In this document: piece after piece, positions 6,614 to 13,578 of the stretch
How the letters are laid out: each line of letters begins with the position of its first letter
Position numbering within the stretch: the first letter of the stretch is position 1
IMG/VR virus record: IMGVR_UViG_3300041809_001176
From: a virus
Reading direction: 5' to 3' (one strand)
Length of the DNA: 14,732 nt
The notes under the pieces: model-generated
What the model saw: the letters and a program-made list of their open reading frames with translations, nothing else
Database searches by the model: none
Told to the model about the DNA's origin: nothing
Translations under genes and position numbers: made by a program

Positions 6614-6637
6614 TGATGCAAACCATGGTTTGCATCA
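6614..6637. repeat. Perfect 24-bp palindrome TGATGCAAACCATGGTTTGCATCA lying between the stop of gene 6644..7225 and the 5' end of the tRNA-like gene.
   Basis: Direct reading. Each 12-nt half is the exact reverse complement of the other, centred on CCATGG. Confidence 0.9.
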
Positions 6638-6643
6638 ACTACG

Positions 6644-7427: not shown

Positions 7428-7892
7428 TCAGATGAAAAATAACAGGTGCTGAACTTTGGGCTTCCCGGCGAGAATGACAAGCACATCTTCAACGCACTCA
7501 TCAACCCCGTATGGAAAGTTGCGACCGGCAGTCCAGTTGTACGTTGGGTTCTCACCCTTTTCGTACGCAGTGTGAAGGACGCTCCAGTCGTTGACGTAGG
7601 AAAGAAACTGCCGCAACTCAGGCAAAAGGGTGACGCCCTTTACGGCTTCCAGTTCCTGAATCCTGAGTATGACCGCCTTGGTCTTTTCATTCAGCGGAAA
7701 GGCATACTGAGTCACGTACTCCTGCCATCCCGGCAGCTTACACGCACCCTGAGTATACAAGACAAAGTTGCCGTTCTCAATCTTCTTCGCCGCCGTGTAG
7801 CAAAAGCTATGAAAGGCGATGCGGCTGGTCAGAAGCTGGCCGTGAAGTTCGCGATACAGCAGGTATTGGCGCTCTTCAAAAGAGGTTGTCAT
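7428..7892 (-). CDS. Hypothetical protein of 154 aa (MTTSFEERQYLLYRELHGQ...).
   Basis: Its start ATG overlaps the TGA of the upstream gene (ATGA at 7889-7892). The longer track ORF (to 8030) would overlap the upstream gene by 140 nt. Confidence 0.55.
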   Translation of the reverse strand: MTTSFEERQYLLYRELHGQLLTSRIAFHSFCYTAAKKIENGNFVLYTQGACKLPGWQEYVTQYAFPLNEKTKAVILRIQELEAVKGVTLLPELRQFLSYVNDWSVLHTAYEKGENPTYNWTAGRNFPYGVDECVEDVLVILAGKPKVQHLLFFI

Positions 7893-8263
7893 TTCGTCAC
7901 CACCATAATCCCGTCTGCGCTGCCGCGCTTCCGTGCTAACGATTCCATGGGGGTCTCGGTGCGAACACGCGGCTCCATGGGGGTCACTTTGAATCTGTTG
8001 CCGTATTTGACTTTCTGTTCGCACAACCACTCGTATGCATTTTCAGGAGTCACCGTGGATGCGTCCACTTCCGCTAACTGCGGAAACTGCCGAAGCAATT
8101 CCGGGGCACATTCCTGACAAGCTTCACCGATTTCATGAGTGAACACCGGATGTCCGAGCACGAATTGCAAGATGGTGTAAAGGGAGCCGATGTCCCGAGC
8201 GAGAAATTTAGTAGTGATAACACTGAGGATGTCGCCCAAGGTGAAGTGTTTTGTCTTTGCCAT
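7889..8263 (-). CDS. Hypothetical protein of 124 aa (MAKTKHFTLGDILSVITTKFLARDIG...).
   Basis: RBS AGGAGA. The second ATG has better spacing. It lies directly downstream of the Ku terminator. Confidence 0.55.
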   Translation of the reverse strand: MAKTKHFTLGDILSVITTKFLARDIGSLYTILQFVLGHPVFTHEIGEACQECAPELLRQFPQLAEVDASTVTPENAYEWLCEQKVKYGNRFKVTPMEPRVRTETPMESLARKRGSADGIMVVTK

Positions 8264-8319: not shown

Positions 8320-9357
8320 TTATGCTGCCGCTGACTTCGCCTTGCCCTTGTTGGCCGCGAGAGCGCCCGTGAGAAGTGCCATCAAGTCCATCTTCTTGTC
8401 CACGGTCGGGGTCGGTGCCAAGACCGGGGCGGTAGGAACGTTGCCCAAAATCTTGTCGTTGATGAGCCCCTTGTACTGGCGCATGGACAGATCGGAGTAG
8501 TCGGCGAGATTGAAGGTGCCGCCCATGGATTCGACCAACTGAGTCGCGATGTCCACCAGAGCCGCTTCCTTGGGACCGTCAAGGTTGACCTTTGTCCACT
8601 TGTCGCAGCCGCGAACTTCGTTGTCGAAGTACAAGTAGCTGACGATCATGCCACCGTCGTCAACGCCGCCGTAGGGGCGGATAACCACCGTCTCCTGACG
8701 GCCACGCTGGCTGGTCTTGGCGATGGCAACCTTGTTCGTCTCCACCATGGACTGACGCAGGATAGCGAACGAGACCTTGGAAACTTCGTCGGCAGGGGCG
8801 ATGTACTCGGAAGCCGCGAAGTACACAGGGTCGATTTCGTTCACGTCCACGAACTTCTCGATAGGCATCGACTTCTCGTTGGCAACTTGGCAAGCCTTCT
8901 TCTCGTCGTCGGTGACGATGGCGAATTCGCCGTCTGCATACTCGTAGCCCTTGAGAATGGCCGCACGTTCCACGGCTTCGTCGCACACCGGGCACTTCAT
9001 CGCACCCTGCTTGAGTTGCTTGTAGTCGGGGGCGGAAACCGGCGTGTACTTGGCTTTGGATTTGCTGAGAGTGCCAGCGGCGATGGCGGCGTCAATCGCG
9101 TTGTTCGCAGCAACCGCCGCCTCAATCTCGGTATGGTTGCAAGCGTGAACCATGTGCAGTTCCACTTTCTCAGGCTCAGTGGACTTGAAGGTTTTGACGT
9201 TCATGTTCAGAACGTTAAATGAAAGAACACCCGTCCAAGTCGCACGAGAAACCATTGCCTTCTCGGCGGGAGCGGTGCTCAACTGTGGCTTGGTGGGAGC
9301 GAGGCCAGCGGCGAGTGCCGCAGCCAGAAGGTCGGTTTGTGAGTTCAGAGTAGCCAT
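8320..9357 (-). CDS. ku: Ku-like DNA end-binding protein of 345 aa. The Ku core begins at M35 (MVSRATWTGVLSF...), preceded by a 34-aa Ala-rich N-terminal extension. The C-terminal tail is Ala/Lys-rich.
   Basis: Bacterial Ku signatures: RATWTGVLSFNVLNMNVK (compare RAIWKGxISFGLVNIPVK), CPVCDEAVERAAILKGYEYADGEFAIVTDDE, and FVDVNEIDPVYFAASEYIAPADEVSKVSFAILRQSMVETNKVAIAKTSQRGRQETVVIRPYGG (compare IDPIYFDRSYYLAP...[33 protein letters not shown]). Confidence 0.8.
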   Translation of the reverse strand: MATLNSQTDLLAAALAAGLAPTKPQLSTAPAEKAMVSRATWTGVLSFNVLNMNVKTFKSTEPEKVELHMVHACNHTEIEAAVAANNAIDAAIAAGTLSKSKAKYTPVSAPDYKQLKQGAMKCPVCDEAVERAAILKGYEYADGEFAIVTDDEKKACQVANEKSMPIEKFVDVNEIDPVYFAASEYIAPADEVSKVSFAILRQSMVETNKVAIAKTSQRGRQETVVIRPYGGVDDGGMIVSYLYFDNEVRGCDKWTKVNLDGPKEAALVDIATQLVESMGGTFNLADYSDLSMRQYKGLINDKILGNVPTAPVLAPTPTVDKKMDLMALLTGALAANKGKAKSAAA

Positions 9358-9363
9358 ATCCTT

Positions 9364-9393
9364 AGTATACCTGCAACCGGGGGGGTTTGGCTA
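9364..9393 (-). promoter_or_regulatory. Candidate promoter TAGCCA-N18-TATACT, with the TATACT box ending 6 nt before the Ku ATG.
   Basis: Minus strand reads ...CCAAAAACTAGCCAAACCCCCCCGGTTGCAGGTATACTAAGGATATG. The rIIA gene has the same architecture and spacing. Confidence 0.4.
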
Positions 9394-9420
9394 GTTTTTG
9401 GATATATTTTTTCGAAAAAT

Positions 9421-9462
9421 TTGAGTAAAAAGAGACCGGGAGAGCCACTTGGGCCCTCCCGG
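9421..9462 (-). terminator. Rho-independent terminator following rIIB.
   Basis: An 11-bp stem with one mismatch (CCGGGAGAGCC/GGCCCTCCCGG) and loop ACTTG at 9436-9462. On the minus strand it is followed by UCUCUUUUUACUCAAAUUUUU. Confidence 0.5.
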
Positions 9463-9533: not shown

Positions 9534-10763
9534 TCAACCATCGTAACCGTCGTCCCACTCCTCTTCATCGTCGTCAGCAGGAGCCACAGCGCGGCTCAGA
9601 GTAGGCCGAGGATACGAAACCCCGGCTTCGCCGATGTCGTCATTGCCTTGCAGCTTGGCAATCGCAATCAGAATCCGGTCAATAACCTCTTGCGACGGCT
9701 TCACGCACCGCTCTGCGTTATAGACCTCTTGCAATTCCATGCCAGCGGCTGCACGAACCTGACCCATGGTGAGCCCTGCCGCCTCACGAGCGAAGCGAAG
9801 AGGGTTGTCAAACAGCTTGGACTTCGACGGGGCGATGTCCATCTGGCTGAACTTGCGGAGCCAGCCGACAAGACGTTCAGTGGAAGCCTTGGTGAAGCTG
9901 GCCGCAGTCATTTTGCCACGCCGCAGGAGGCGCTTCACAGTCGGTAGAGCCTTGACCTTCTTGATGATGTCGAAGCGGCAATCAGGAACCTCAATCAGCG
10001 GCTGCATCATGATGGCAGCATCCGCCGTATCGGAGACCAGATTGGAAATTTCTTCGATGCCGACTTCCGCAAAAACTTCATACGTCCAGCAGCGGAACTT
10101 GCGGTGACCGAAGCCCAAAGGGCTGGCAACCACGTCGGCAGGATTGACCTTGACAACCATGATGTGGTTGCCGTGGCTGTAGAAGCTGCCGATGTAGCCA
10201 CGAACGCAAACGTGGTAACCACGGGAGCATTCGGTGTACTCACTCGGATCAACTTCGGAACGAGCCATCAAGGGACGAGCGCCAATGTGATTGTCCACCT
10301 TGTGGGTGTGCTTGTCCTTGTAGTTCGCATCGACCACCTTGTAACCGACGATGCAGCCGTCACTGGTGATAGCGTAGCGACCGGCGTTAACCCAGTCGTA
10401 AATCCGGTTCACCGTATTCACGTCTTCCTGTTGGTACAGGTTGTCCATGAAGCGGAGCCAACTCACGACAGACTGGCCGTGCTCGATGAGTTCGAGAATT
10501 TTGGCCGAGAGGCTGTTGTCCACCTTCTGATTGCGGTAGAACACGCCACCAGAATTGACAGTGACCTTGCCATGGGTCCGCTCTGCCAATTGAGCACTGA
10601 GGTCAACCAGCTTGGGAATGCGTGACCAGTCGCCGCGTTCCAGAGCCCGGTGAAGTTGCTTGAAAGTTGCTTGCCCCTTGGTCGCTTGGTGAGTCTTGCC
10701 ATCCAGCACCACGGCCACGTAGTCGTCTTGAAGAACGTACGGAATTGCAGTCGCATTAGACAT
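9534..10763 (-). CDS. rIIB: rIIB-like protein of 409 aa, with a C-terminal HTH-like segment.
   Basis: Matches to recalled T4 rIIB: ECSRGYHVCVRGYIGSFYSHGNHIMVVKVNPADVVASP versus TCSRGLHVCSKSYIRHFGSSTDRVVKVKVHPRDVVSIP. Also GKVTVNSGGVFYRNQKVDNSLSAKILELIEHGQ versus GDVRIEGGSLFYQNIELRSGLVDRILDSMEKGE, and DGCIVGYKVVDANY versus DGYFYAWKVVRSNY. Its start overlaps the rIIA stop by 8 nt, giving the T4 gene order rIIA then rIIB. Confidence 0.8.
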   Translation of the reverse strand: MSNATAIPYVLQDDYVAVVLDGKTHQATKGQATFKQLHRALERGDWSRIPKLVDLSAQLAERTHGKVTVNSGGVFYRNQKVDNSLSAKILELIEHGQSVVSWLRFMDNLYQQEDVNTVNRIYDWVNAGRYAITSDGCIVGYKVVDANYKDKHTHKVDNHIGARPLMARSEVDPSEYTECSRGYHVCVRGYIGSFYSHGNHIMVVKVNPADVVASPLGFGHRKFRCWTYEVFAEVGIEEISNLVSDTADAAIMMQPLIEVPDCRFDIIKKVKALPTVKRLLRRGKMTAASFTKASTERLVGWLRKFSQMDIAPSKSKLFDNPLRFAREAAGLTMGQVRAAAGMELQEVYNAERCVKPSQEVIDRILIAIAKLQGNDDIGEAGVSYPRPTLSRAVAPADDDEEEWDDGYDG

Positions 10764-13314
10764 TGACGGTCTCCTCTTCGTCTTCGGTTTTGGTTTCGTC
10801 GTCGGTTATCACTCGAACATCGGTCAAAACCAACCGTCTGTTCTGCTCATCAGTGTACCGGATGTAATCCACCAAAACGGTCTTCTCTTCTATTGTACCT
10901 GAACCGTAGGTGTTTCGGCTACAAATTTTCAGGATTGGGTAATTTTTTATTACCTTCTGCCACGCTTGATTGTAGTCCGCTGTGTTGTTGATGGCAATCC
11001 CAAGAGTCTTCGCGAGGGTTACCAGATTGGCGTGACCACGACGGTCTGCGGCCTCCGCTTTATGGATAGCCAGTGCGAACTGACGAAACGGACTATCCAC
11101 TGAAAGCAGTTGAGGATGCTCCGCCACGTATTCCATGACTGACTTCCAGTTCGAAGAGAACGGCTTCACAGCGAGGCTCAGTTCCATTTCCTTGGCCGGG
11201 GTGATGGTTTCAGTCACCCGAGCCCTTACGAAGGGCAGGAAGTCGATAAAGAGCGGGTCCGGGAGCAGTTTGGAGCCAGCCTTGATGCCGAAGATGCCGA
11301 AGATGGGAGTGTCAGCACTAATCTCCGGGAACAGATCAGACTCACGAACCGTATTCACGAAGTCGATGAAATTTCTGGCGTAGTAGAACCCCGGAAGGTT
11401 CATGGGTTCAATTGAACTACCGCTCACCATCACATAAAACTTCGTCGCTGTGGAATCATTGAGTTCAAAATTGTCGTCGCCCTTTTGCCACTGTTTCTTC
11501 CAACCACCACCGCTGCTACAGCGAGTGCGTTCAGCGTAGTGACGCAGGATGCGAACGTTCATCCGTTCACGCTTGACAACCTGCACGTCCTTCTCAGCTT
11601 TCAACAGCGGATCAAACTTCGCCTTGAGTTCAGACGCTTTGACCACCGGAGGATTGCCGATGCGGTCGAGTAGAGCAACAGCTTCATCGCCAGCGCGACC
11701 CATGGGGATGCTCCGAGTCAGCCGGTTAATCACCAAAGCCTTGCGATACTTGCCAACGGTAAAGGCACCCTCGCCGGTCCCTCCCTCGGAGATTCCATCC
11801 CACGCTTTTTGGGCTGCGATGCGGTCACCTTGAAGCAGGTAGCTAACGTATCTGTCAGCCTTCGTGTTGAGGTCGTTAATCACAAAAATTACGCCTTGGT
11901 CTACACTCAACTTGAGGTCGTAATCTTTCTTCTCTGTGATGTTAGACCCCAAATCGCGGAAAGCCTCAGCCCTCTTTGCCTGAGTTGCAAATTCGAACAA
12001 CGGCTCTTTCTTCGCTTTCTTTGCCGAGCGCCGGTCGCTGTAACGGAATGCTGTCACTTCGATGTGCTGATAGTCGAGTTCGTTAATGACGACCGTGTTG
12101 CTGCCTTCCTTGGTGATGCCCTCCAACTTGAAGAAGGTGTATGCACCATTCAACAGACCACGATTGTAGGCGTCGTTGACCAGAGCCCCCATACCCGGTT
12201 GCATGGTCAATTCACGAACCTTGAGACGTGCCTCCCATCCTGTCTTGCAGCCGTCAATCTGTTTCTTGATTTCTTCAAGCAGTTTGTCTTGCACGATGTC
12301 CAGACGGGCGAGAATGTTGTGAATGGTTTTGTCGTCCAATTGCAATGCTTCGCGGGACGCTGCCACACTCAACTCACCGATGTTGAAGAACAAGTCGATG
12401 GGCATCGAGACCAATTTCTTCTGAGCCTCGGTCAGGCGGGACTGGTCAATGTTGCCGACGCTGTACTGCACGTTGCCTTGAATCGCACGGAGAGCATCGC
12501 CCTGCGCCGTATCCGCATCGGTACGCATACCCCACAGGTCAGTTTTCACCGAGTAGGTGGGGTTCTTGATAGTGACCGCCTTGTTCAACTTCGGACGCGG
12601 AAAGAAAAATTCGAAAACGTTCGCAGCCTTGTTTTCGAACTCCCAAATATCGCGACGGTCAACTGGGAAGGAAACCTCCAAACCGTTCGGCTCGTTCGGC
12701 GTGTCGATAACCTGCATCGGTACCACGGTTGGAAATCCATTCTTGACCATGGCAGTGTAGATGTAGGTGCGGCCCTCATAGTGGTTGGTGACCGTGAAGC
12801 CGCCCGACTGCGTAGAGCCATCGCCAGTTTTCTTGTTGGTGTAAGCGAAGGGCGATTTGGAGCCAAGACCGAGAGCACCGATGAATTCGTTGCTCTGATT
12901 TTTGTCGGAGGCGAAGTAGGTGCAATAGAGACGCATCACAGCGTCATAGTCACCCGTGTGGTTGCAATCTTCACAGTAAATCTCTGCCGCCGATCCCTTG
13001 CCAATGATGCCAGTCCCGTGGCAAGTCTCGCACCCACCTTTGATGAAACGAAGGCCGGTACCAGTATCCTTGACGGTGAAGATGGGGGTGAATTGAGTGG
13101 GAAGATGAACCTCAAAAGGCTCATGTCGCTTGCCAGCAGCCACATGGGCGTCCCATGCATTGCATGAGAGTTCACGGATAACGGCTCCAATTTTATCGCC
13201 GTACAGGCCGCTGGATAAGATTTCGAAGGTGACGGTGGATGCTGCAATCTTGAAGCTGGATGGCGCTGATGCGTTTCCAATCTTGGCGTCTGTGCCTTGG
13301 GTTCCTAGCTGCAT
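10756..13314 (-). CDS. rIIA: rIIA-like protein of 852 aa with an N-terminal GHKL (Bergerat-fold) ATPase domain.
   Basis: FKIAASTVTFEILSSGLYGDKIGAVIRELSCNAWDAH versus T4 rIIA [41 protein letters not shown] N-box E..NA.DA, G1 box VKDTGTGL and G2 box GALGLGSKSPF are present. The ATG at 13312-13314 has RBS AGGAG at 6-nt spacing. The track start at 13329 is a GTG without an SD. Confidence 0.85.
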   Translation of the reverse strand: MQLGTQGTDAKIGNASAPSSFKIAASTVTFEILSSGLYGDKIGAVIRELSCNAWDAHVAAGKRHEPFEVHLPTQFTPIFTVKDTGTGLRFIKGGCETCHGTGIIGKGSAAEIYCEDCNHTGDYDAVMRLYCTYFASDKNQSNEFIGALGLGSKSPFAYTNKKTGDGSTQSGGFTVTNHYEGRTYIYTAMVKNGFPTVVPMQVIDTPNEPNGLEVSFPVDRRDIWEFENKAANVFEFFFPRPKLNKAVTIKNPTYSVKTDLWGMRTDADTAQGDALRAIQGNVQYSVGNIDQSRLTEAQKKLVSMPIDLFFNIGELSVAASREALQLDDKTIHNILARLDIVQDKLLEEIKKQIDGCKTGWEARLKVRELTMQPGMGALVNDAYNRGLLNGAYTFFKLEGITKEGSNTVVINELDYQHIEVTAFRYSDRRSAKKAKKEPLFEFATQAKRAEAFRDLGSNITEKKDYDLKLSVDQGVIFVINDLNTKADRYVSYLLQGDRIAAQKAWDGISEGGTGEGAFTVGKYRKALVINRLTRSIPMGRAGDEAVALLDRIGNPPVVKASELKAKFDPLLKAEKDVQVVKRERMNVRILRHYAERTRCSSGGGWKKQWQKGDDNFELNDSTATKFYVMVSGSSIEPMNLPGFYYARNFIDFVNTVRESDLFPEISADTPIFGIFGIKAGSKLLPDPLFIDFLPFVRARVTETITPAKEMELSLAVKPFSSNWKSVMEYVAEHPQLLSVDSPFRQFALAIHKAEAADRRGHANLVTLAKTLGIAINNTADYNQAWQKVIKNYPILKICSRNTYGSGTIEEKTVLVDYIRYTDEQNRRLVLTDVRVITDDETKTEDEEETVNV

Positions 13315-13331
13315 GATGTTCTCCTGCACCT

Positions 13332-13361
13332 AGTATACCGGCTGTACCCACCTTTTGGCTA
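13332..13361 (-). promoter_or_regulatory. Candidate promoter TAGCCA-N18-TATACT upstream of rIIA, with a 17-nt leader containing the SD.
   Basis: Minus strand reads GAATACTAGCCAAAAGGTGGGTACAGCCGGTATACTAGGTGCAGGAGAACATCATG. Hexamers and spacing are identical to the Ku promoter. Confidence 0.4.
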
Positions 13362-13365
13362 GTAT

Positions 13366-13578
13366 TCAGGAAATTTTTTTAGCTTTATCGACCAAATTTG
13401 AGTAGAGCAAAAAGGCAGCAAAAGCCACCGCAGCGAATAAAGCAGGGACAAACCACGATAGACCGGGGTTGAAAAAGTGGGCAATTACGAGGAGAATTGT
13501 GGACACCGACCCGGACACCCACAACCCGTGGACGAGTCCAATCAGTAAAGCTAGATTCTGCGATATGACAGGCTTCAC
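13366..13578 (-). CDS. Small two-TM membrane protein of 70 aa, with a GTG start overlapping the upstream stop (GTGA).
   Basis: Strongly hydrophobic (LALLIGLVHGLWVSGSVSTILLVIAHFF...FVPALFAAVAFAAFLLY). There is no in-frame ATG. It sits between the Cys-rich gene and the rIIA promoter. Confidence 0.4.
   Translation of the reverse strand: MKPVISQNLALLIGLVHGLWVSGSVSTILLVIAHFFNPGLSWFVPALFAAVAFAAFLLYSNLVDKAKKIS

Follow-up and report, generated by a model that had tools for sequence, protein, structure and literature searches.

The early promoters of bacteriophage T4, described as 'uber' promoters, combine UP, -35, TGn and -10 elements with an extra phage-specific consensus in a unidirectional early region (Hinton 2010, PMC2988021). 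Related T4-like lineages contain their own sigma-70-like early consensus inside promoter-terminator (PeSL) cassettes (Arbiol 2010, PMC2839356; Comeau 2014, PMC4122927), lineage-specific motifs that mediate shuffling (PMC4122927). In the Thermus phage phiYS40, the middle and late transcripts are leaderless according to the accounts of Sevostyanova et al. 2007 in PMC3594737 and PMC12340547, and in several bacterial phyla the sequence TANNNT next to the start codon is a mark of leaderless genes (PMC3160421), with the same arrangement found in Deinococcus-Thermus (PMC12340547). Here we describe a promoter-like element of the virus record IMGVR_UViG_3300041809_001176 from IMG/VR, a stretch of 14,732 nucleotides which we refer to as the window, where the sequence TA(G/T)CCA-N18-TATACT precedes three minus-strand genes, encoding a Ku-like protein, the protein rIIA and a small protein (gene 286..576). 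Together with related sites on other contigs, these elements probably constitute a strong, lineage-specific class of promoters, from which the large, uncultured phages of a peat and soil clade would express genes of the pre-replicative (early) type.

The three sites, which an earlier note on this DNA had located at 9364-9393, 13332-13361 and 583-612 of the minus strand, are all present as described, and the pattern TAKCCA-N18-TATACT, with its three matches in the window, was not encountered once in 200 dinucleotide-preserving shuffles. The heptamer GTATACT is found five times, always on the minus strand and against an expectation of 0.33, including two copies on the same strand (7752-7758 and 14411-14417) that had initially been missed, as had the long conserved flanks of the motif. 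As a strain variant, the window is nearly identical to the ENA metagenome contig ERZ27250145 k141_122410 (40.8 kb), of which our analysis covers 32.4 kb, in the following termed the 32-kb source stretch. The gene strand of this stretch contains nine copies of TATACT, each of them as part of GTATACT, and the opposite strand contains two. Five sites share the sequence aaaaWWtttyCCnAAAAAC-TAGCCAAAA-N11-CCGG-TATACT, all on the coding strand, and a matrix derived from these strong sites assigns them 63-76 bits, with the next best match on either strand, which is the third site of the window, scoring 2.0 bits. Non-coding sequence, which makes up 6% of the stretch, wholly contains four of the five strong sites (P=6.7e-5), and none of the five is located on the opposite strand, which bears out the proposal of a promoter-like class upstream of gene starts rather than of a motif of coding regions.

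Further members of the family were found with a search pattern of 32 bases, 18 of them specified (ACTAGCCAAA-N14-GGTATACT), in 16 stretches of IMG/VR viral contigs and in 75 stretches of JGI metagenome contigs, the latter mostly from peat or bog samples and including contigs of 248 and 332 kb. The collection contains about 80 distinct copies distributed over about 90 metagenome or viral contigs from peat and soil, and the upstream A/T block, which the search pattern did not include, accompanies the core in most of 77 distinct contexts. A rescan of the fetched loci (designated by numbers preceded by L) with up to three mismatches added 28 sites, nearly all of them with the A/T block, and revealed TAGCTA, TATCCA, TAGCCG, TAACTA, TGGCTA and TAGACA as variants at the -35 position and TATCAT, TATTAT and TATCCT as variants of the -10 hexamer. 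By our own estimate, about 0.03 sites with two or fewer mismatches would be expected in all loci, compared to the dozens that were observed. A short-query BLAST of the promoter against deposited phages returned chance-level matches only. Around 12-15 metagenome matches lacking the flanking blocks were treated as chance, and matches in Caldilineaceae and other genomes were not accepted as family members, since they either show a different palindromic CCAAA...TTTGG context or are themselves due to chance. In five loci from Caldilineaceae metagenome-assembled genomes (MAGs) and metagenome contigs (L029, L059, L099, L100 and L104), the coincidental match to the search pattern is embedded in a recurring sequence, GATCACTAGCCAAA-N-TTTGGTATACT, with palindromic CCAAA/TTTGG arms, which may be an operator-like site in Chloroflexota. 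A conserved sequence downstream of one subgroup of sites corresponds to no family in Rfam and is a protein-coding open reading frame (ORF) of the same strand.

The motif extends over about 50 bp and is far longer than first described, comprising an upstream A/T block, a box at the -35 position, a free spacer and an extended -10 region. Its features are defined by a position profile of 80 family sites, where bases outside the searched core constitute independent evidence. The A/T block reads AAAWWW-TTT-yCC-n-AAAAA (-55 to -38), with A at -55 to -50, T at -49 to -47, C at -45/-44 and A at -42 to -39 emerging from unsearched bases, and with the A at -38 belonging to the search. It thus occupies the location of an A/T-rich UP element, at about -40 to -60, and its designation as UP-like refers to the E. 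coli UP consensus as reportedly defined by Estrem et al. in 1998. The box at the -35 position, C-TAGCCA-AAAC (-37 to -27), contains C-37, TAGCCA (-36 to -31) and AA (-30/-29) as searched bases, followed by A-28 and C-27, which were unsearched and are conserved. The spacer from -26 to -17 carries almost no information. With lengths of 13-25 bp permitted, 84 of 85 cases show a separation of 18 bp between TAGCCA and TATACT. The extended -10 region, CC-GG-TATACT (-16 to -7), starts with a pair of cytosines that are conserved though unsearched, and its hexamer is of the TANNNT form, with T-12, A-11, T-10 and T-7 unchanged throughout the 80 profiled sites and the variants and with variation confined to -9 and -8. 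Further downstream, position -1 is a T in 59 and position +1 a purine in 73 of the 80 sites.

This anatomy modifies several aspects of the initial description. The label 'non-canonical' appears overstated in light of the invariant A-11 and T-7, the UP-like block, the pyrimidine-purine signature at -1/+1 and the outcome of a generic sigma-70 scan, where the Ku and rIIA sites match TTGACA-N18-TATAAT, a consensus that may not be that of the host, at 9 of 12 positions. Similarly, the palindrome GTATAC is most simply accounted for by G-13 preceding the -10 hexamer and not by an element of its own, and the upstream element TATCCAAAAAC, thought to be shared by the Ku gene and gene 286..576, results from a shift in register, as it spans -47 to -37 in the upstream A/T block of the former and -36 to -26, which is the -35 region itself, at the latter.

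A second pronounced property of the family concerns the junction between the motif and the downstream gene. At 27 of 81 sites, an ATG follows exactly 6 nt after TATACT, where about 1.3 would be expected (binomial P=1.7e-28), and no other offset from 0 to 40 comes near this count. At 29 sites, 26 with an offset of 6 and three with an offset of 5, the codon at this junction opens an ORF, with lengths ranging from 23 to more than 231 codons. These ORFs belong to 20 unrelated N-terminal families, and four further sites of the same type use GTG. As proposed initially, this distance is exactly 6 nt for Ku (ATG 9357-9355) and for the gene with its ATG at 576-574, where an end of the -10 region 5-7 nt before the start codon (9364 to 9357 in case of Ku) leaves no room for a Shine-Dalgarno (SD) sequence. 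Orthologues keep the spacing while the 6-nt discriminator differs, as observed for Ku (2 members), for the families starting with MAKITVRP (5) and MKELRITSS (3) and for a CCA-adding enzyme (2), and three orthologous copies of an ORF of about 110 residues share an offset of 5. Synonymous changes between orthologues begin at codon 2. In the Ku orthologue of locus L037, GGTATACT-N6-ATG is retained and the N-terminus is 90% identical over 52 residues, with synonymous changes that underline its conservation at the protein level and with no better start downstream; conserved N-termini equally favour the +1 codon as the probable start in the MAKITVRP and MKELRITSS sets. The leaderless reading of the earlier note has thereby received strong comparative support as concerns the family and the Ku gene, while gene 286..576 remains ambiguous.

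The other large group of 28 sites is followed by a start codon 15-32 nt downstream with an SD sequence in front. An SD tetramer is located at exactly the predicted +1 in 14 of these sites and at +3 in five more, and the predicted leaders are mostly 9-16 nt long. The rIIA gene belongs to this SD-led class. The distance of 17 nt between TATACT and its ATG at 13314 and the presence of AGGAG were correctly recognized, but not all of the 17 nt would be part of the leader, which, with a start 7 nt after the -10 region, is predicted to comprise 11 nt (AGGAGAACATC) and to begin with AGGAG. In its orthologues in L094 and L097, the conserved blocks are kept and spacer and discriminator differ. The regularities of the leaderless and of the SD-led class both indicate a start 7 nt after the -10 region, and thus a promoter-gene junction that appears to be built for either no leader or a minimal leader opening with the SD sequence.

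Automated gene calling in this phage apparently overlooks leaderless genes or assigns them a wrong start. One example is a start called at ATG 591 inside the -10 box of the third site of the window, another an uncalled ORF of 65 codons on the source contig outside the window (L006, 16993-17190), which opens 6 nt after a strong promoter site and ends at the called start of an RNA ligase. The respective site, which maps to 29034 in the merged 32-kb source stretch, is located within called coding sequence. In L063, it is the orthologue of the RNA ligase itself that starts at the +1 position of the promoter.

An A/T block, a -35 box, a spacer of fixed length, an extended -10 region and a pyrimidine-purine start together form a layout typical of promoters that are recognized by a bacterial holoenzyme, with contacts to a housekeeping-type sigma factor and to the C-terminal domains of the alpha subunits. 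By comparison, the family motif is unlike the promoters of single-subunit or phage multisubunit polymerases, which form a short, uninterrupted sequence around the start. The sites are thus best read as phage early promoters of the housekeeping-sigma type with a built-in leaderless or minimal-leader design, and we consider it likely that they act as promoters with the predicted start site. In this mechanism, the A/T block between -55 and -38 would bind the alpha C-terminal domains in the manner of an UP element, C-TAGCCA-AAAC would be placed for an interaction with sigma region 4, and A-11 and T-7 of (CC)GG-TATACT would be read by sigma region 2, with the spacing between both elements fixed at 18 bp. 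Transcription would start at the purine located 7 nt after the -10 region. Where this purine is the A of AUG, a leaderless mRNA would be produced, as predicted for Ku, possibly for gene 286..576 and for about a third of the family sites, whereas an SD sequence at the same position would result in a minimal leader of 9-16 nt, as in case of rIIA.

The assignment to a pre-replicative class is based on the downstream genes, which across the family encode rIIA, helicases, CCA-adding enzymes and other nucleotidyltransferases, a ligase, an ATPase and many small proteins without known relatives (ORFans), with no head, tail, portal or terminase families found among them. This gene content agrees with the earlier suggestion that the motif marks a co-regulated, probably early set. 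A host in which these promoters operate must translate leaderless mRNA efficiently, and the properties of the family are in this respect consistent with a host from the Acidobacteriota, where leaderless genes were predicted in three out of three genomes, with an average of 13% of genes (PMC3160421). The literature yielded no published promoter consensus for acidobacteria, and in about 90 kb of presumptive host contigs, which we scanned for the host consensus and for leaderless use, only the promoter of a bacterial module described below stood out.

Judged by analogy, the closest functional counterpart of the family is the T4 early promoter class. Both are found in many co-oriented copies in a region of early or accessory genes, with rIIA and rIIB among them, share -10 and -35 positions of the sigma-70 type, an A/T-rich UP element and an added phage-specific consensus, and would presumably both serve to capture the host polymerase right after infection. 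They differ in the box at the -35 position (TAGCCA compared to GTTTAC or TTGACA in T4), in the spacing (18 compared to 17 bp), in the bases preceding the -10 hexamer (GG at -14/-13 instead of TGn) and in a strong preference for C at -8, and the activity of the family as promoters is predicted from sequence. An AUG at +1, found in about a third of the copies described here, is to our knowledge not a reported feature of T4 early promoters. In this respect, the family resembles phiYS40, as a large phage that, in the accounts available, systematically places the -10 region next to the start codon and relies on leaderless translation by its host. The leaderless class of phiYS40 was, according to the same accounts, defined by experiment and is middle or late, whereas the class predicted here concerns genes of the early or accessory type. 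The leaderless promoters of phiYS40 are also said to lack a -35 element, in contrast to the strong box at this position and the UP-like block found here. An equivalent distinction applies to bacteria with leaderless mRNAs, namely Actinobacteria, Deinococcus-Thermus and, by prediction, Acidobacteria (PMC3160421, PMC12340547, PMC3898074), which share the location of TANNNT 6-7 nt before ATG or GTG and the absence of an SD sequence, but usually contain a -10 region alone, with a weak or absent -35 region, instead of a conserved promoter of about 50 bp on phage DNA. The family is thus a lineage-specific example combining known kinds, a phage early promoter class and a leaderless or minimal-leader gene design, and it is distinguished by its unusual box at the -35 position, the strict spacing of 18 bp, the high leaderless fraction among early-type genes and the presence of copies on bacterial defence-island modules.

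Several observations weigh against the described interpretation. All statements on function, including promoter activity, the 5' ends of transcripts, leaderless translation, early timing and the binding of a polymerase or other recognizing factor, are derived from sequence. The apparent invariance of the core is in part a matter of ascertainment, because the exact-match search had fixed the core positions of most family sites. The third site of the window is located in coding sequence, and the overlapping protein can explain its conservation. The hexamer at the -35 position fits the sigma-70 criterion by its location, whereas its sequence matches TTGACA, a consensus that may not be that of the host, at four of six positions, with TAG in place of TTG, and the conservation of the box over 11 bp exceeds the need of sigma region 4 and would thus be compatible with a dedicated DNA-binding factor. 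The gene of a phage sigma factor or activator could be located outside of the 32-kb stretch, in a genome that is probably much larger. Finally, the isolated acidobacterial jumbo phage Tunturi 5, whose genome was scanned as a whole (309 kb), contains neither a GTATACT nor a site within four mismatches, and the motif is for this reason not a general feature of acidobacterial phages. Tunturi 5 shares only four weak protein matches with the source contig.

Some of these observations would be accommodated by a mechanism with the same start site that requires a phage-encoded factor, either an activator whose binding to the CTAGCCAAAAC box substitutes for the contact between sigma region 4 and the -35 region in a manner similar to MotA and AsiA of T4, or a phage sigma factor, in which case the class would be middle rather than immediate-early. 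We regard such a mechanism as rather unlikely, although it is the strongest of the alternatives. T4 middle promoters similarly contain a conserved box of 9-11 bp in place of a canonical -35 region at a fixed distance from a -10 region of the sigma-70 type, and they are found upstream of rIIA and rIIB of T4 (PMC2988021, Table 1). The box described here, with about 11 conserved bp, differs from TTGACA at the second position, which is a critical one, and is separated by 14 bp from TATACT, near the distance of 12 +/- 1 bp in case of the MotA box. Its sequence is unrelated, and neither CTAGCCAAAAC nor the distance of 14 bp conforms to the definition of the MotA element, which reads (a/t)(a/t)TGCTT(t/c)a, is centred at -30 and lies 12 +/- 1 bp from the -10 region (PMC2988021). 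Part of the box (TAGCC-AAAAC) recurs at a distance of one helical turn in the upstream block (TTyCC-n-AAAAAC), a layout used by activators that bind in tandem. Large phages can moreover encode their own sigma factors, two of which are annotated in Tunturi 5, and the absence of the motif in this phage, which is presumed to depend on acidobacterial RNA polymerase, argues against a simple generic host consensus. However, searches of the 59 proteins from the 32-kb stretch, which covers part of an incomplete genome, revealed neither a sigma factor nor MotA, AsiA or a subunit of RNA polymerase, and two sigma-factor probes from Tunturi 5 retrieved nothing in about 577 kb of related loci, which is a weak test. 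The sigma-70-like anatomy and the strong UP-like block, which is typical of promoters read by the unmodified host polymerase, instead favour recognition by the host polymerase alone, as does the occurrence of the same promoter on bacterial contigs without phage genes nearby, suggesting that it may function without the phage.

On these bacterial contigs, the promoter and its upstream A/T block recur in near-perfect form in front of a conserved module consisting of the ORF of about 110 residues, with its ATG or GTG located 5 nt after TATACT, followed by a dual-specificity phosphatase and a serine recombinase. The module is found in L103 (contig CAZYCV010000001.1 of a MAG binned as Terracidiphilus, Acidobacteriota) and in L028, L035, L038, L039, L040, L045, L054, L057, L060, L064, L071, L081 and L098, and its contigs are rich in defence genes and encode type I restriction-modification, MvaI/BcnI, AbiC, DndB, RmuC and an integrase. 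An invertible promoter switch was considered and discarded, as no consistent flanking inverted repeats were detected. It is conceivable, if improbable, that the promoter is read only by a phage-modified polymerase or phage factor and that the module employs it as a 'decoy' early promoter to switch on a defence or mobility function upon infection. In a milder variant, TAGCCA-N18-TATACT and its flanks may reflect a so far unrecognized specificity of the housekeeping sigma factor and alpha subunit in a bacterial lineage of peat soil, possibly within the Acidobacteriota.

A further alternative, to which we assign a very low probability, views the repeats mainly as mobile or recombinogenic cassettes that owe their conservation to spread and exchange, with a secondary role as promoters. 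As in the PeSL of T4-like phages, putative early promoters with a lineage-specific consensus are repeated in a unidirectional, possibly hyperplastic region rich in ORFans, and the rIIA and Ku copies follow terminator hairpins and form terminator-plus-promoter composites that share the sequence TACTCAAATTTnnTCGA. Two anecdotal hints of exchange breakpoints at the promoter are provided by L086 (296-327, minus strand) and L090 (5858-5889, minus strand), which are identical in the promoter and in the first 19 nt of a leaderless ORF (MANLKA...) and diverge completely thereafter, and by the RNA ligase, which is fused directly to the promoter in L063 and separated from it by the 65-codon ORF in the source contig. 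However, an upstream terminator-like hairpin is found at only 7 of 78 family sites (about 9%, compared to 2.4% in controls), so that a PeSL-type coupling of promoter and stem-loop does not extend across the family, and the block-wise conservation, the free spacer of fixed length and the tie to start codons and SD sequences at the level of single nucleotides argue for functional selection on transcription and translation instead of mere copying. The cassette reading would thus complement but not replace an interpretation as promoters. The breakpoint just inside the gene in L086 and L090 is reminiscent of PeSL-mediated shuffling. The sequence TACTCAAATTTnnTCGA is located between terminator hairpin and promoter in both the Ku and rIIA units (9417-9427 and 13394-13404 on the minus strand; two matches, 0.2 expected) and is absent from orthologous promoters elsewhere, which suggests a local duplication of the terminator-promoter cassette.

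Chance similarity or a by-product of coding, which could be invoked for the two sites within called coding sequence (583-612 and 29034 of the merged stretch), is refuted for the class by the results of the shuffles, the number of near-matches, and the strand bias, intergenic bias and start-codon spacing, which are all far beyond chance, and it is conceivable only for 583-612.

This third site illustrates the limits of the class. Whereas the Ku and rIIA sites are strong members, 583-612 is much weaker, degenerate and ambiguous. With two mismatches to the 18-base core, it is the best match outside of the training set and, in light of the small number of such sites expected in all loci, a statistically real member of the family; its ACTATCCAAA variant recurs in a full-length site of L010. 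At the diverged orthologous locus (L014, L077 and L088; 55-71% amino acid identity), GTATACT-N6-ATG is exactly kept, whereas the hexamer at the -35 position reads TACTGG and the family box is thus lost. The site is wholly contained in the 3' end of the called gene 579..803 (stop codon 581-579), and the conserved GTATACTGTAA at this location doubles as coding sequence for CIL-stop, within the conserved C-terminus (...PCIL-stop) of the upstream protein. Also conserved, 15 nt upstream of ATG 576, is the start selected by the gene caller, an ATG or GTG in the same frame. The site may thus be a weak internal promoter giving rise to a leaderless mRNA, or gene 286..576 may be translated by coupling to the upstream gene.

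Table 1. Predicted promoter elements, hairpins and genes of the window, with positions counted on the 14,732-nucleotide stretch.
Feature	Position	Strand	Description
Predicted Ku promoter	9357..9412	-	62.7 bits; UP-like A/T block 9395-9412 (-55 to -38); C-TAGCCA-AA 9386-9394 (TAGCCA 9388-9393)
Predicted Ku promoter, downstream half		-	GG-TATACT 9364-9371 (TATACT 9364-9369); discriminator aaggat 9358-9363; predicted +1 at 9357, the A of the Ku ATG
Predicted rIIA promoter	13325..13380	-	67.2 bits; UP-like block ~13363-13380; TAGCCA 13356-13361; TATACT 13332-13337
Predicted rIIA promoter, start		-	predicted +1 at 13325, first A of AGGAG; predicted leader 11 nt; ATG 13314
Degenerate family member	576..631	-	TATCCA 607-612, N18, (T)GTATACT 583-590 (TATACT 583-588); ATG 576 located 6 nt downstream
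Terminator-like hairpin followed by T-run	9436..9462	-	11-bp stem with 9 G-C pairs; closes the rIIB unit just upstream of the Ku promoter
Terminator-like hairpin followed by T-run	13414..13429	-	just upstream of the rIIA promoter
Ku-like gene	8320..9357	-	Pfam Ku, 1.3e-32; predicted leaderless mRNA
rIIA gene	10756..13314	-	SD-led, predicted minimal leader; rIIB next at 9534-10763
Gene with no assigned function	286..576	-	96 aa; 101 aa if the start is ATG 591
GTATACT in intergenic gap	14411..14417	-	25 nt before ATG 14385; without family -35 box or UP block; possible -10-only promoter
TTGAGA-N17-TATACT	7752..7780	-	10/12 matches to the sigma-70 consensus; inside ORF 7428..8030; not a family member

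The genomic context of these features (Table 1) is provided by the 32-kb source stretch, where all but one of about 60 called genes share the same strand. They encode rIIA, rIIB, Ku and an RNA-repair set (Tpt1, an RNA or DNA ligase and a protein resembling tyrosyl- or tryptophanyl-tRNA synthetases), and include transfer RNAs (tRNAs), an M24 peptidase, an ATP-grasp protein of the R2K type, a vault-like protein of 850 residues and many small ORFs without known relatives, with no structural genes found in this stretch. The rIIA protein is about 30% identical to its counterparts in T4-like phages, a megablast of the window detected no close deposited phage, and a search of viral contigs based on Ku retrieved nothing. 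The vault-like protein (866-3418, minus strand), which is unusual in a phage, matches the shoulder domain of the Major Vault Protein (PF11978, 6e-24) and the vault repeat (PF17795, 6e-10). Inside its gene, at about 2520-2715, about 200 nt of the window contain about 17 substitutions and an indel of 3 nt relative to k141_122410, compared to a single difference in the remaining 14.5 kb, and this patch is localized and hypervariable or recombinant. Within 3419-4057, the sole plus-strand gene of the region (3688..3939, 83 residues) is located between unusually long non-coding gaps, with terminator-like hairpins of the plus strand at 3745-3774 and 3963-3985 in the gaps flanking it, and an A/T block resembling the upstream block of the promoter (AATTTCCTCAAAA) is found near 4006 without the -35 or -10 parts. 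A tRNA gene at 6524-6595 on the minus strand (47 bits in Rfam), classified by ARAGORN as tRNA-Asp with the unusual anticodon ATC, is overlapped by the mechanically predicted ORF 6447..6638, and three genes for tRNA-Lys are located at the far end of the contig (L002, 20-271). On a related viral contig of 89 kb (L011, 6296-6424, minus strand), a family promoter is located directly upstream of a tRNA cluster, whose first member, assigned as 'Pyl' by ARAGORN, carries the anticodon CUA of an amber suppressor, which hints at stop-codon suppression or recoding in this group of phages.

Collectively, the presented analysis provides a precise model of promoter, start site and two modes of translation for a widespread clade of phages whose contigs reach 248-332 kb and which has no cultured member. 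The model allows better gene calls, and the 32-base pattern, which has retrieved about 90 related stretches, is usable as a search key for more genomes of the clade. As a compact and strong promoter candidate, the motif may also become a genetic tool for soil bacteria that are poorly tractable.

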